Shown: positions 3,695 to 26,630, counted from the first letter of the stretch. The stretch is DNA of 34,235 nucleotides from Vulcanimicrobiota bacterium (GCA_050250895.1 JBFWNU010000001.1:3913002-3947236), one strand, 5' to 3'. Numbers and translations: made by a program. The notes: generated by a model from the sequence alone, not told the origin.

Positions 3695-5440
3695 GTGCGT
3701 ATTGAACCTGTTTCCAACCAGCCAACGGCTGCCCCTGCTCGTCGAGCCGACACCGCCGCCAAGGTCGCAGAGCCACGCGATGGAGTCGGTCCCGCCCGAA
3801 CCACCGAGGACCCGAGTTATAAGGCTCGCTCGGACCTTTCGGCCGGGGAAGTTTCGGCCCCAAGGGTGGAAGAGCCCCACCACGAGGAGGATGTCGGAGT
3901 GCCGGTAGCCGTCTTGAAAGAGGTCACCCGCGAGGCCATGGAAAGCCGGGGCTTGACCATCGGCTTTTCCCCTGAGGCCCTCGAGCAGGTCGAGAAGATG
4001 GGTGGGCCGGTGCCGCTGGAGGGCGAGGGAGTGCGCGACCTGCGCCACCTCAAATGGGCCTCCATCGACAATGCCGACACCAAGGATATCGATCAACTCG
4101 CCTTCGCCGAGGACCTGGGCGGGGGACGCCGGCGGCTGCTGGTGGCCATCGCGGATGTCGCCGAGGCCTTCGACAAGGGGACACCCCTCGATGAGCAGTG
4201 TCAGCTGAATACCGTCACCGTCTACACTCCGGGCGAAGTCAATCCGATGCTGCCTAAGCAGATGTCCACCGACTGGACCTCGCTCAACCCCGACGCCGAC
4301 CGCCGGGCGTTGGTGACCGAACTCATCATCGGGGCCGACGGCGAGGTCGAGAAGTCGACCGTCTTCGAAGCGGCCGTCCGTAACCAGGCCAAGCTCGATT
4401 ACGTGACCGTTTCTGATTGGTATGAAAAAGGCGGCGAACCGCCGGCCGCCATGACCAGCCCCGAGATGCAAGAGCAGGTGCGGCTGCAGATGGATACCGG
4501 CCTGCTGTTGGGCCAGGCCGCCCAACGCCGGGGCGCGCTGGCCTTCGAGACCGACCGCGTGTTACCAGTAGTCGAGAATGGTCATCTGGTCGATCTGGTC
4601 AACGAAGAGAAGAACTCGGCCAACGAAGCGGTGGCTCATATGATGATCGCCACCAACGTGGCCAACGCCAGCTTTCTGCACGAGAAAGGATTTCCGGTTT
4701 TTCAGCGGGCGGTTCCCGAGCCGGGGCGTTGGGATCGGATGCGCGAGGTGGCCGCCCAGGCGGCCTCGCACCTGCCCGAAGGCAAGGAGATGGCGTCCGA
4801 GCTGGCTGTCTTGCCTGCCGACGCCGACCCGGCCGCTCTGGCCCGGTTTCTCGAGGAATACAAGGCACGCAACCCTGACGGCTACGGCGAGGTGTCGCTG
4901 AGTATGCTGAAGTTGATGGGCGGGAGTGACTATGTGGCCACGCCGCCGGGTGAGCCCTTGCAAGGCCATTTTGGCCAGGGGGTGAGTGGGGGCGACCTGG
5001 GTTACTTGCATTCCACCGCTCCCAATCGCCGCTATCCCGATGTGGTGGTGCAGCGGCTGCTCAAGGCCGCTTCGGCCGGCCAACCTTGTCCTTACACCAT
5101 GGAAGAGCTCGAGGCGATCGCCGACCGCTGCAACCAGCAAGAGAGCGCCGCCAAGGGGGCCGAACGCCAGGTCCGCAAAGCCGCTGTTTCGCACTATCTG
5201 GCCAGCCAAATCGGCGAGGAGTATGAAGCTGTGGTAACCGGCGACAATCCCAAGAAGGGCACCTTCGTGCGCGTAATGGACCCGCCCATCGAAGGTAAAC
5301 TGGTCGAGGGCTTCGAGGCCGTCGATGTGGGCGACAAGCTGCATATCCGCCTGAAGGCGGTCGACCTCGAGAAGGGTCACATCGACTTCGTCCGCACCTC
5401 CGAGGTGGAAGACGCCTCCAGCGCTCACCTGAGCAACTAG
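3695..5440 (+). CDS. RNB-domain (RNase II/R family) ribonuclease with C-terminal S1 domain and ~65-aa low-complexity N-terminal extension
   Basis: WASIDNADTKDIDQL, LLVAIADV, TVYTPG..PMLP and HSTAPNRRYPD motifs; C-terminal S1-like 'IGEEYEAVVTG...GHIDF'. Confidence 0.9.
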   Translation: MRIEPVSNQPTAAPARRADTAAKVAEPRDGVGPARTTEDPSYKARSDLSAGEVSAPRVEEPHHEEDVGVPVAVLKEVTREAMESRGLTIGFSPEALEQVEKMGGPVPLEGEGVRDLRHLKWASIDNADTKDIDQLAFAEDLGGGRRRLLVAIADVAEAFDKGTPLDEQCQLNTVTVYTPGEVNPMLPKQMSTDWTSLNPDADRRALVTELIIGADGEVEKSTVFEAAVRNQAKLDYVTVSDWYEKGGEPPAAMTSPEMQEQVRLQMDTGLLLGQAAQRRGALAFETDRVLPVVENGHLVDLVNEEKNSANEAVAHMMIATNVANASFLHEKGFPVFQRAVPEPGRWDRMREVAAQAASHLPEGKEMASELAVLPADADPAALARFLEEYKARNPDGYGEVSLSMLKLMGGSDYVATPPGEPLQGHFGQGVSGGDLGYLHSTAPNRRYPDVVVQRLLKAASAGQPCPYTMEELEAIADRCNQQESAAKGAERQVRKAAVSHYLASQIGEEYEAVVTGDNPKKGTFVRVMDPPIEGKLVEGFEAVDVGDKLHIRLKAVDLEKGHIDFVRTSEVEDASSAHLSN

Positions 5441-5504
5441 CCTCTATGCGACCGGATGCCCCGGCTTGACCCTTTTGGCCGCTTTGGCTCAACGGCGGCC
5501 TCGA

Positions 5505-5510
5505 TAAGAT
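5505..5510 (+). promoter_or_regulatory. -10 element TAAGAT 7 nt before ATG (probable leaderless transcript, no TTTCAG box)
   Basis: TAAGAT-cgaggcg-ATG(5518). Confidence 0.45.
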
Positions 5511-5517
5511 CGAGGCG

Positions 5518-24801: not shown

Positions 24802-24834
24802 AGCCTAGCCTTCGGCCGTGAAAAGACTATGAAA
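24802..24834 (-). promoter_or_regulatory. Shared promoter motif TTTCAT-N5-TTTCAC-N10-TAGGCT-N6-ATG
   Basis: Minus strand: TTTCAT 24834-24829, TTTCAC 24823-24818, TAGGCT 24807-24802, ATG 24795. Confidence 0.75.
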
Positions 24835-24870
24835 GGCAGGGTTCTGGGGCCGCTTCGGAAAGGGGAGGCT

Positions 24871-25821
24871 ATGCGCAAGTTCCTTCTGCTTCTGCTGTTG
24901 AGCCAGATGGCCCTGGCCGAACCGATGCTCGGCACCTACTCCATCGTGGCCCGTGACCCTCAGACCGGCCGTCTGGGCGTGGCCGTCGAGAGCCATTGGT
25001 TCAATGTTCGGGCGAACGTGCCCTGGGCTCGTCCGGGAGTGGGAGCAGCGGCTACGCAAGCCGCTACCAACTCGGCTTTCGGTTACCGTGGCCTGGCCCT
25101 GATGGCTCAAGGTGAGACGCCTCGGGCGGCCCTGACCAGGCTGCTGACCGAAGACTCGGGTGCGGCCCGCCGCCAGGTTGGCTATGTCGACGCCCAGGGG
25201 CGTACGGCTTCCTGGACCGGGGAACTGTGCATTCCGGCGGCGGTCTCGATCGAAGGCGAGCAGTTCGTGGTGCAGTCCAATCTGATGGACAAGGACACCG
25301 TGTCGCAAGCCATGGCGGAGGCCTTTCGTCAGTCTAGAGGGCCGCTGGAGTTTCGTCTACTGGCGGCCCTGAAAGCGGCTCAAAAAGAGGGCGGAGACTT
25401 GCGCGGCATGCAGAGTGCGGCCATGGTGGTGGTGGCTGCCAAGGACACCGGAAATCCCGTGGCCGACACCATCGTCGACCTGAGCGTCGAGGACCATCCT
25501 CACCCTCTGGAAGAGCTCGAGCGTTTGCTCGGCATGCATCAGGAGTATGCTTCCTACAACGCCATGATCAAGGCTGTCGATGACCACGACCCGGCCGCCC
25601 TCGAGCCTTTGCTGGCCAAGTTGTCACCCGAGAACCAGGAGTTGCGGTTCTGGGTGGCTCTCGAGCTCTATCGCAATGGGGCCCGCCACCGTGCCCTGGC
25701 TCTCTTCAAGCCGGTGTTCGAGGCCAACGATGCCTGGCGTGAACTCTTGCCCCGGCTGGTGCCGGCCGAGTTGCTGACCATAGAGCAGGTCAAGGCCATT
25801 CAGAAAGCCCTGCCTCGCTAA
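24871..25821 (+). CDS. DUF1028 family (Ntn-hydrolase-like) secreted protein
   Basis: GGAGG RBS; signal peptide; TYSIVARDP.TG.LGVAV.S, GVGAAATQA, RQV and GGDLRG.QSAA. Start reassigned to 24871. Confidence 0.88.
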   Translation: MRKFLLLLLLSQMALAEPMLGTYSIVARDPQTGRLGVAVESHWFNVRANVPWARPGVGAAATQAATNSAFGYRGLALMAQGETPRAALTRLLTEDSGAARRQVGYVDAQGRTASWTGELCIPAAVSIEGEQFVVQSNLMDKDTVSQAMAEAFRQSRGPLEFRLLAALKAAQKEGGDLRGMQSAAMVVVAAKDTGNPVADTIVDLSVEDHPHPLEELERLLGMHQEYASYNAMIKAVDDHDPAALEPLLAKLSPENQELRFWVALELYRNGARHRALALFKPVFEANDAWRELLPRLVPAELLTIEQVKAIQKALPR

Positions 25822-26630
25822 CGGGCGCGAAACACCTCAGCGATGTGGGCCTGCAGAGCCAGTTCTCGCTCTTTACCCAGGCGCACCTGGCTGGTCACGT
25901 CGTCATAGGCTTTCCAGGGGTCCAGGCCCAGCTTGAGCACGGCCCCGGTTCCGGCCCGGTCGGCTCGCTTTTCGATGGCTTCTTTCCAGTCTTTGTAGAG
26001 ACCCTCGACGGCAGCAGCCTCGGCCTTGAGCCCGCCCAACTTGAGCACTTTCTCGAGAGCCGTGCCGGCCACCATGCCGGCCGCATCGCCGGGCTGGTCT
26101 ACGTGGCCTAACTCGTGGCCCAGGGTGAAAGCCAGGGCCTCGTCGCTGGCCTGGTCGATGAAGCTGTCAGAAGCATAGACGCGACCGCCGGGGCGGGTCG
26201 AGGCGGGCTCGTAGTGAAGGGCTTCTTCGTGAGCCACGTAGAAACGTCCCTCGGGTAGCCCGCCAGCCTGGGTGATGGCCTGCCCCATCTTCCGCAGGCG
26301 TTGGGTGCGGTCCGTGGCGTCACCCTCGAGATTAAAGCTCAGGGCCTCGTGGCGCTGGTCGCCGAGTTCGGAAAACACCTCGGGACCCCATTGGTCTTGC
26401 ACGGCCAGCACGGCTGCCGCCATGGGCACGGGAATGCCGGCCACGGCCAGCGAGGCGGTGCTGGACAGGGCCTGCTGGACCTGGCGGGCCAGCAGGGCGG
26501 GCTCGTCGACGGTAGCTGGCGCGATTTCGACCAGGTCGTGGGGACCGGTCGCGTCGGACTCGGTCTGGCGGGCGAGTTGTCGACTCTGCTCGAGAAAGAC
26601 CCGGGCGAAGCGTGGATAGTCGATCCTCAT
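25818..26630 (-). CDS. M48-like zinc metallopeptidase with N-terminal extension
   Basis: PGGRVY, LAFTLGHELGHV (HExxH) and EKRAD. Confidence 0.78.
   Translation of the reverse strand: MRIDYPRFARVFLEQSRQLARQTESDATGPHDLVEIAPATVDEPALLARQVQQALSSTASLAVAGIPVPMAAAVLAVQDQWGPEVFSELGDQRHEALSFNLEGDATDRTQRLRKMGQAITQAGGLPEGRFYVAHEEALHYEPASTRPGGRVYASDSFIDQASDEALAFTLGHELGHVDQPGDAAGMVAGTALEKVLKLGGLKAEAAAVEGLYKDWKEAIEKRADRAGTGAVLKLGLDPWKAYDDVTSQVRLGKERELALQAHIAEVFRAR

Follow-up and report, generated by a model that had tools for sequence, protein, structure and literature searches.

The Hrp regulon of Pseudomonas syringae is expressed from hrp-box promoters of the extracytoplasmic function (ECF) sigma type. 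The effectors of this species follow N-terminal rules, namely an aliphatic amino acid or a proline in position 3 or 4, no acidic residue among the first 12 and more than 10% serine among the first 50 (PMC3338616, in part). The early (rod and hook) flagellar subunits of Salmonella carry a two-part export signal within a disordered region, as in FlgD, where small non-polar residues right at the N terminus (2-SIAV-5) precede the gate recognition motif (GRM) 36-FLTLL-40; the spacing between the two parts has to be at least 19 residues and is best at 24–30 (PMC8983047, in part). Effector regulons of Legionella are described with promoters that combine repeats with a hexamer (PMC6989116, in part), and the flagellar type III gate of Lysobacter enzymogenes OH11 exports non-flagellar toxins, among them proteases and glucanases, which are used on other organisms (PMC7688988, in part). 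The system described here was found in a 34,235-nucleotide (nt) stretch of a Vulcanimicrobiota bacterium assembly (GCA_050250895.1, JBFWNU010000001.1; C1:3913002-3947236), called the window below, and extends over the whole genome of 9.5 Mb (17 contigs, 99.6% complete). It consists of a promoter element upstream of the genes, here termed the box, and an N-terminal extension of their products, here termed the tag. Together they mark a regulon of ~300 genes that is specific to a clade; most of the encoded proteins bear the tag, which is conserved, disordered and made of three parts and looks like an undescribed targeting or export signal for effector-like enzymes. No published description of either element was found in a literature search whose range stopped short of the secretion-system annotation in the supplement of PMC9259500. 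Statements on function are inferred throughout.

The box consensus obtained with an iterated weight matrix is TTTCAG-N5-TTTCAGG-N9-TAGACT-N6-ATG/GTG, in which a pair of direct repeats, lying 11 bp from each other, precedes a −10-like hexamer. Genome-wide, 303 sites score at least 20 bits as opposed to a single one in the reversed-genome control, and 325 sites score at least 18 bits as opposed to four. The spacing is rigid, as TTCAGG and TAG..T are separated by nine nucleotides in 22 matches and by eight or ten in none, while six nucleotides lead from there to the start codon in 22 matches compared with one match for five, three for seven and none for eight. The start codon stands exactly at this position in 137 of the 325 sites (~43%), whose mRNAs would thus be leaderless, and one to three nucleotides further on in another 54. 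The remaining sites have leaders of up to ~90 nt, and eight sites lack an open reading frame (ORF) of at least 60 amino acids within 120 nt, which leaves a set of 317 box proteins; ORFs were called by our own rules and the starts of leadered genes were set by a crude rule, so that the latter are approximate. Since the box is locked to the start codon, the long protein starts are genuine and do not lie downstream of the extensions, a possibility which the preliminary description of the window had itself raised.

Tandem direct repeats with a period of ~11 bp that substitute for a −35 element and keep a constant distance to the −10 hexamer are the layout expected of response-regulator-type promoters. 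By analogy, the repeats are a candidate site for a winged-helix response regulator that would replace the −35 element and activate the promoter, and the sequence suggests that transcripts begin at or beside the start codon. The same layout is known from pho boxes. Sigma-28, sigma-54 and ordinary sigma-70 promoters were ruled out for the box on spacing and sequence, by inspection against their consensus sequences.

The preliminary description had quoted nine N termini from the window, all of which are present in the sequence, and had placed the catalytic domains well inside the proteins, which is borne out by the Pfam matches (Table 1). Six window genes have a box of 25–30 bits that adjoins the start codon (12835, 14786, 18006 and 23018 on the plus strand, 24795 and 26630 on the minus strand). 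The shared start M-x-[IV] turned out to mark a genome-wide family that includes hydrolases and many other proteins, as it is found in 173 of the 317 box proteins (54.6%) compared with 13.9% of the background, which throughout consists of 3765 genes led by a Shine-Dalgarno (SD) site. Isoleucine or valine occurs at positions 2–4 in 74% of the box proteins (background 34%), in agreement with the small hydrophobic N terminus of type III substrates, and 72% have no aspartate or glutamate in the first 12 residues (36%). The proline content of residues 4–40 is 10.4% (6.1%), and R-x-A is present at residues 8–28 in 39% (15%); where a Tat signal has a hydrophobic core directly after its twin arginines, this R-R-A or R-x-A appears by inspection to be followed by a stretch that is rich in proline, alanine and serine and not hydrophobic. 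An early, signal-peptide-like hydrophobic core is found in 3.8% of the box proteins as opposed to 14.4% of the background.

The second motif, D-x-[VI]-x-[LIVF], lies at residues 24–40 in 18.0% of the box proteins and in 3.3% of the background. Among the 173 proteins with M-x-[IV], 56 contain it, with the first occurrence at residues 26–35 in 37 of the 56 and before residue 21 in none, where chance would give ~1.2 per five-residue bin. An alignment of 26 tags yields the consensus M-x-I-x-P ... P ... A ... P-x-D-x-V-x-L. Of the nine quoted window proteins, five have the motif at residues 29–34 (RNB, DHH, GDPD, M48 and 12073), whereas 14786, 12835, 19241 and 24795 share only M-x-[IV]. Applied to all 162,828 candidate starts, a loose two-part pattern is not specific by itself (687 matches versus 585 in the position-shifted control), and a hidden Markov model (HMM) of the tag works within a genome (37 and 33 matches at E<=0.01) and is too weak for large protein databases. 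Taken together, the tag would be a portable, disordered element of ~35–45 residues, which opens with M-x-I/V-x-P/G/S and few acidic residues, continues through a Pro/Ser/Arg-rich stretch often containing R-x-A, and closes with P-x-D-x-V-x-L-S/G at residues 26–35.

The disorder and the conservation of the tag can be followed in the RNase II-family (RNB) protein of the window. In an AlphaFold2 model built on an alignment of homologues, residues 1–65 have a predicted local distance difference test (pLDDT) score of ~30 and no secondary structure, and the confident fold starts at about residue 69. In a large protein collection, homologues with 57–70% identity (mostly ~525–620 amino acids) span the N terminus of the query, whereas those with 43–48% identity measure ~485–490 amino acids and cover ~85% of it, the named ones being labelled Chloroflexota or Acidobacteria. 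A diverged tag is kept in 12 close homologues (MNLDPIAQQ..., MEIEPIG..., MKVDPIAH..., followed by A-x-R and P-x-D/E-x-L), and four outgroup homologues begin at the catalytic body, so the extension is specific to a lineage, as had been supposed.

Box and tag travel together and are found jointly only in f1 and f2, two sister families of the phylum. Among 30 relatives, the box pattern occurs in 13 of the 15 genomes of f1 and in all five of f2, as opposed to two of the ten genomes of the small-genome family f3, there as single matches at control level; the corresponding numbers for the tag profile (E<=0.01) are 9/15, 5/5 and 1/10. In a sample of 121 genomes across the phylum, including an unpublished one (G120) represented by a single row of counts, all 12 genomes with at least three box matches belong to f1 or f2, and at this threshold the box was not found in the other large-genome families f12 (7–8 Mb) and f17 (7.4 Mb) of the sample. 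The tag profile (E<=0.001) was found there in genome G000, in 3 of 12 genomes of f1, in 3 of 3 of f2 and in none of the 105 others. Tag examples from other genera have a box of 17.8–29.7 bits at offset 0 or −1 in seven of eight cases. As the relatives share descent, the clade pattern counts as one evolutionary event.

Like the signal of the Salmonella early subunits, the tag thus combines isoleucine or valine at positions 2–4 with a second motif at residues 26–35 and never before residue 21. Unlike the GRM, which has the form F-x-x-x-hydrophobic, the positioned motif of the tag is D-x-V-x-L (strict pattern, 56/173) within P-x-D-x-V-x-L-S/G, and the tag contains R-x-A as a third element; its carriers are enzymes and orphan proteins rather than axial proteins, and a link to FlhB would be drawn by analogy (compared with the part of PMC8983047 cited above). 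As in the P. syringae Hrp system, one promoter motif and one N-terminal pattern mark a scattered repertoire, and two of the three P. syringae rules hold for the 173 tags, being satisfied by 100% for position 3 or 4 (by construction) and by 81% for the absence of acidic residues, as opposed to 39% for serine. The differences are that the tag is a conserved motif and not only a composition, that its promoter looks activator-dependent and that no injectisome is seen. The Legionella PmrA and CpxR regulons, as far as the cited part of PMC6989116 describes them, serve a type IVB apparatus with C-terminal signals, in contrast to the present system, in which ~300 promoters share the box, many of them adjoin the start codon and no VirB4 was found. 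Cases of non-flagellar cargo in flagellar type III systems, reportedly including one in Campylobacter, involve a handful of substrates. They lack a shared tag or promoter to the extent that the cited part of PMC7688988 covers them, while the candidates here number a few hundred.

The cargo of the tag was surveyed by a Pfam scan of 140 of the 317 box proteins, comprising 100 tagged ones (ranks 1–100 by box score among the 152 box proteins with M-x-[IV] and a length of 150 amino acids or more) and the top 40 without M-x-[IV]; the window's RNB protein ranks below the scanned 100 and its DHH protein lies outside the box set. A Pfam family was assigned to 44 of the 100 tagged proteins and none to the other 56. 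Enzymes of lipids and membranes are represented by six PlsC acyltransferases, three GDPD proteins, an AMP-binding enzyme of the acyl-CoA synthetase type, a glycerol-3-phosphate (G3P) oxidase (DAO), one each of a lipid desaturase, a caleosin and a polyhydroxybutyrate (PHB) depolymerase, and two P450 proteins. Proteases include three M48-like proteins, two C92 amidases, one C26 peptidase and one subtilase, and the nuclease and nucleotide group has one each of Endonuclease_1, a uridine-kinase-like protein, adenylate kinase and peptide deformylase. Besides the caleosin, eukaryote-like domains are found in a PI3/PI4-kinase-like protein and an animal haem peroxidase. The list further contains four pyrroloquinoline quinone (PQQ)-type propellers, four giant InhA-like MAM proteins, two amylases, an MGH1-like glycosidase and single LOG-like, PAD-like, Gln_deamidase_2 and ERAP1_C proteins. 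The 40 box proteins without M-x-[IV] frequently open with M-I-x or M-x-x-I/V and include flavin reductase, pyruvate kinase, an M61 peptidase, P450, monogalactosyldiacylglycerol (MGDG) synthase, LysM, MscS and PilZ proteins.

The tagged enzymes are extra copies. The genome encodes three adenylate kinases, three deformylases, two pyruvate kinases, two G3P oxidases and 13 PlsC-type matches, and alignments of tagged enzymes to their untagged copies begin after the tag. The tag has been acquired not only by such additional paralogues of common enzymes but also by eukaryote-like domains and by many orphan proteins. Within the PlsC-type family of 13, at least six members are tagged and many share G-P-x-D-G-x-S-H/R-P just after the tag.

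The reading preferred here, to which an even chance of being right is given, is that the tag serves as a post-translational address signal by which these jointly regulated, effector-like proteins would enter an export or translocation route of their own. In keeping with it are the cargo, rich in orphans, paralogues and eukaryote-like domains, the single promoter and the suspected predatory or eukaryote-associated ecology, a possible predatory lifestyle having been proposed for large-genome Eremiobacterota (PMC9259500, in part). As to the route, export through a type III apparatus, which the preliminary description had proposed, may be hypothesized by analogy. The genome contains two full-length FHIPEP and two FliP genes and thus two flagellar-type export sets, of which one is a compact and complete core cluster and the other is split, with FliP standing apart from flagellin, FlgM and FlhA (Table 1). 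No injectisome parts were seen in the core cluster, which is flagellar in type. VipB, phage sheath and VirB4, one marker family each for type VI secretion systems, extracellular contractile injection systems and type IV secretion systems, were not found in the genome, and two secretins were. The flagellar-type apparatus leads the candidates on two grounds only, namely that no other one-step exporter with an N-terminal signal was found in the genome and that its early substrates have a similar two-part, spacing-dependent signal.

FlgM had served as the model for the extensions, and a genuine FlgM is indeed encoded; it starts with MTV..., and its disordered N-terminal half contains ...SSVEVSTS at about residue 40. 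In spite of this likeness, the tags are not members of the FlgM family, since PF04316 exceeds its cut-off only at FlgM itself (60.7 bits; the next best match, at 14.7 bits, is unrelated) and the tag profile search did not retrieve FlgM. The genome's own rod proteins do not show the tag. When the tag alignment was modelled in complex with the cytoplasmic domain of FlhB from the compact core cluster, the prediction scored 0.00 and, being without controls, is no evidence either way.

Thus, the two-part, spacing-constrained layout and the encoded apparatus speak for type III-like cargo, but a number of observations weigh against the export reading, beginning with regulatory, positional and phyletic links to the apparatus, none of which was found. 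The FlgM gene has a sigma-28-like promoter, GTCGATAA, and an SD site, no box was found in the three flagellar regions scanned, which therefore show no co-regulation with the box genes, and no apparatus, chaperone or response regulator was recognizable among the top 40 box genes without M-x-[IV] (13 of which have a Pfam family). Box genes lie at random-like distances from flagellar genes and from genes for the FlhA cytoplasmic C-terminal domain (FlhA_C), one of eight FlhA_C paralogues having a box gene within 1.5 kb compared with a random expectation of ~0.10, which is no association. FliP is present in 114 of the 121 phylum genomes regardless of box or tag, so no phyletic co-occurrence is seen; a single FliP is found in the box-bearing genomes G016 and G020 and two in the box-less families f10, f12, f13 and f17, and FHIPEP is expanded in the box-less families f5, f10, f12 and f17, with 9–12 matches in f5, f12 and f17. 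Furthermore, the second motif D-x-V-x-L occurs in only about a fifth to a third of the members, and cytoplasmic-type enzymes such as peptide deformylase, adenylate kinase and pyruvate kinase would be odd outside the cell. Finally, the tag had been said to stand in place of signal peptides, which holds for the first ~25 residues, where none of the 173 M-x-[IV] box proteins has a classical early hydrophobic signal, yet 76 of the 173 contain a hydrophobic segment starting at residues 25–110 (median 53), followed in 15 cases by a lipobox-like L-x-G-C. Several members carry what looks like a full lipoprotein signal behind the tag, an amylase shows a Gly-zipper 2TM match (residues 42–78) after its tag, and the members with later hydrophobic segments or lipoboxes fit Sec/Lol export or membrane insertion better than type III.

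Eight genes of the genome encode FlhA_C only, i.e. the substrate-docking part of FHIPEP, mostly without a membrane part and in one case with a helix-turn-helix (HTH)-like N terminus. None of them is a box gene and one adjoins a box gene. In relatives, as many as 19 of these paralogues occur in a genome, and they are widespread across the phylum, where two FliP copies are common as well. A second export gate and the FlhA_C expansion were both considered as clade markers and ruled out, as both are widespread in box-less families.

A bolder form of the export reading, tentative and on the unlikely side, sees in box and tag a protein-delivery code of the families f1 and f2. With the response-regulator-controlled, largely leaderless regulon, an arsenal as large as that of Legionella, which includes enzymes that remodel lipids, nucleases, proteases, kinases and eukaryote-like domains, would in this case be delivered into prey or eukaryotic hosts, through a co-opted flagellar type III gate or an unrecognized translocon, and the code would form the basis of the suspected predatory or host-associated lifestyle. 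Should the tag be an export or translocation signal, a single DNA motif together with a single peptide motif would mark all effectors of a phylum that is hardly studied; these would number a few hundred in each genome, more than half of them without a known domain, and the question whether the large-genome bacteria are predators or host-associated would be affected. A tag conserved in sequence would be unusual, since known type III signals share a composition rather than a conserved sequence, and it might serve as a portable secretion or localization tag.

Internal localization, although unlikely overall, has to be taken seriously as a rival, since cargo of cytoplasmic and lipid-body type is present. 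The tag would here be a cytoplasmic docking tag that involves no secretion and recruits soluble enzymes and the cytoplasmic tails of membrane or hairpin proteins to an internal site such as a domain of the membrane, a lipid body, a storage granule or a cell pole, and would define a new bacterial sorting signal. Much of the cargo is of a lipid or granule type or of a cytoplasmic type (PlsC, GDPD, caleosin, PHB depolymerase, adenylate kinase and deformylase), and the remaining box genes add pyruvate kinase, flavin reductase and MGDG synthase. Many members have hydrophobic hairpins after the tag, in which case the Arg-rich tag would be expected to stay on the cytoplasmic side of the following membrane segment, and the searches by neighbourhood, by phyletic distribution and among the box genes showed no link to an apparatus. 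On the other hand, cargo of an extracytoplasmic type is present as well, including Endonuclease_1, the subtilase, the amylases, the four InhA-like MAM giants and the members with lipoprotein signals; the large share of proteins without a Pfam family (56/100) resembles effector sets; and no organelle shell or scaffold candidate was seen, none having been looked for specifically. Whichever of the two holds, the promoter offers a clear-cut case of an activator-type regulon that is very large and probably leaderless.

The segments and lipoboxes behind the tag can also be read as a sign that it is an extended Sec or lipoprotein pre-sequence that times or sites export, its presence on non-hydrophobic proteins being a by-product of the spread of the cassette. 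Conserved N-terminal extensions are known on some signal peptides, such as the extended signal peptide region (ESPR) of autotransporters and the YSIRK motif of Gram-positive bacteria, and several of the lipoprotein signals are textbook-like. This is nonetheless improbable. In 79 of the 173 proteins, including the cargo types RNB, DHH, adenylate kinase and deformylase, the first 200 residues are free of hydrophobic segments, and the conservation of the tag among orthologues of soluble proteins argues for a function in these as well.

Another possibility, a very improbable one, is that the N-terminal codons or the nascent peptide act at the level of expression and not in protein targeting, through leaderless translation or a proline-linked control of the EF-P-dependent or arrest type. 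Tag and promoter are closely coupled, and mRNAs from this promoter would be leaderless; the tag is also Pro-rich, and its second motif lies ~30 residues in, which is roughly what the ribosomal exit tunnel holds. However, M-x-[IV] is found in 88 of 137 leaderless genes, in 32 of 54 with leaders of 1–3 nt, in 23 of 44 with 4–15 nt and in 21 of 61 with 16–40 nt, thus at similar frequency behind leaders of 4–40 nt. Ten of 39 tags detected by HMM have no box within 120 nt, and seven of these ten have an SD-like site, the operon-internal gene 19241 in the window being a box-less SD-led example. Since it is kept behind leaders and on such genes, the tag is a feature of the protein and not a by-product of the promoter or of leaderless translation, and among diverged orthologues it is conserved at the amino-acid level. 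That the tag is an artefact of over-long ORF calls and chance motifs, as might be feared at a G+C content of 63% in the genome as in the window, which lets ORFs run upstream of the true start, and in view of the over-called ORF 17959 and the unspecific two-part pattern, is effectively refuted by the locked box position (22 matches as opposed to 0–3), the 303 sites versus one in the control, the 4- to 5-fold enrichments and the conservation of the tag among orthologues and in two families.

The individual features of the window and the flagellar-type loci of the genome are listed in Table 1. Genes 12835, 19241 and 24795 are paralogues, and none of the five small window proteins matched a Pfam family. 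The gene at 13512..14747 is likely co-transcribed with 12835. In the region upstream of 19241, the longest ORF opens at GTG 17959 and is over-called by 47 nt; given the box position, the true start is ATG 18006.

Table 1. Features of the window (positions counted from its first nucleotide) and flagellar-type loci elsewhere in the genome (contig:positions)
Feature	Position	Strand	Details
Partial box upstream of RNB gene		+	half-site and TAGAAT (TCAG-N9-TAGAAT-N6-GTG); <10 bits
RNase II-family gene, RNB and C-terminal S1	3695..5440	+	tag MRIEP...PRDGV; tag and linker ~residues 1-65; Pfam RNB 114-459
Weak box 5' of DHH/DHHA1 gene	7829..7867	+	14.4 bits (weight matrix); then SD-like GAAGGAG leader
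DHH/DHHA1 phosphoesterase gene	7884..9344	+	tag MQICS...QETVELTS, second motif residue 34; DHHA1 288-344
Small family-less protein, gene 12073	11453..12073	-	tag MIIAN...DPVDRYTP, then Gly/Ala-rich hydrophobic segment
Weak box of gene 12073	12120-12158	-	11.2 bits
Strong box adjoining ATG of gene 12835	12796..12834	+	30.5 bits (weight matrix)
Box gene 12835	12835..13515	+	MQVRA...; two-segment Gly/Ala-rich hydrophobic region; C-terminal tail ...LSDEGVWIGNTYIP
Uncharacterized 411-amino-acid gene	13512..14747	+	without tag; start overlaps stop of 12835
Box and gene 14786	14747..15766	+	box 14747-14785 (25.3 bits); gene 14786-15766, MQVRS...; C-terminal tail ...AEAVDISGISLP
Box and gene 18006	17967..19239	+	box 17967-18005 (27.0 bits); gene from ATG 18006, MLSSY...; C-terminal tail ...EEDTVTIGDQVLFLEP
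Operon-internal gene 19241	19241..19921	+	MLINN...; behind SD-like AGGAG, without box; fold class and C-terminal tail as 12835
Pseudopilin-type cluster	20048-22976	+	among box genes
Box and GDPD gene 23018	22979..24190	+	box 22979-23017 (29.8 bits); gene 23018-24190, tag MLIGS...LDQTELSG; Pfam GDPD 73-379
Gene 24795 and box	24187..24834	-	gene 24187-24795, MVIYG..., hydrophobic hairpin; C-terminal tail ...KDEAVNIGGVWVP; box 24796-24834 (28.0 bits)
DUF1028 ORF	24304-25821	+	DUF1028 domain residues 211-405
M48-like peptidase gene 26630 and box	25818..26669	-	gene 25818-26630, tag MRIDY...HDLVEIA; Pfam M48-like 108-189; box 26631-26669 (27.8 bits)
C-terminal tails in the window	13456-13515, 15707-15766, 19171-19239, 19862-19921, 24187-24246		
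Compact flagellar-type core cluster	C1:1458965-1476156		FlgB, FlgC, FliE, FliF, FliI, FliJ, FliK, rod/hook protein, FliM, FliN, FliO, FliP, FliQ, FliR, FlhB, FlhA
Split set, main part	C1:556403-587613		flagellin, FlgL-like gene, FlgM, FlhA
Split set, FliP	C1:128966-129544		
FlgM	C1:558747-558902		PF04316 match
FlhA_C paralogues	C6:529401-530381, C1:2013982-2014740, C1:2475431-2476438, C7:121919-122905, C1:1126976-1127566, C7:117253-118194, C1:2008860-2009774, C8:31716-32150		

A C-terminal tail of the form (D/E)(D/E)-x-(V/I)-x-(I/V)-G-(D/G)-x-x-(V/L)-P was noticed in five of the window proteins. As a regular expression it ends 21 ORFs of the genome as opposed to none in a reversed control of 106,610 ORFs; on inspection ~18 of the 21 are convincing, and box genes account for 10 of them all. 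The call of the DUF1028 ORF is too long, as its first ~175 residues overlap gene 24187-24795 on the opposite strand, and an internal MRKFLLLLLLSQMALA just before the DUF1028 domain looks like a true signal-peptide start. The pseudopilin-type cluster that lies among the box genes includes a 642-amino-acid protein with, as judged by eye, a GspK-like N-terminal membrane helix, and a protein that matches the prepilin N-methylation motif PF07963 at 19.8 bits, which is short of the cut-off.

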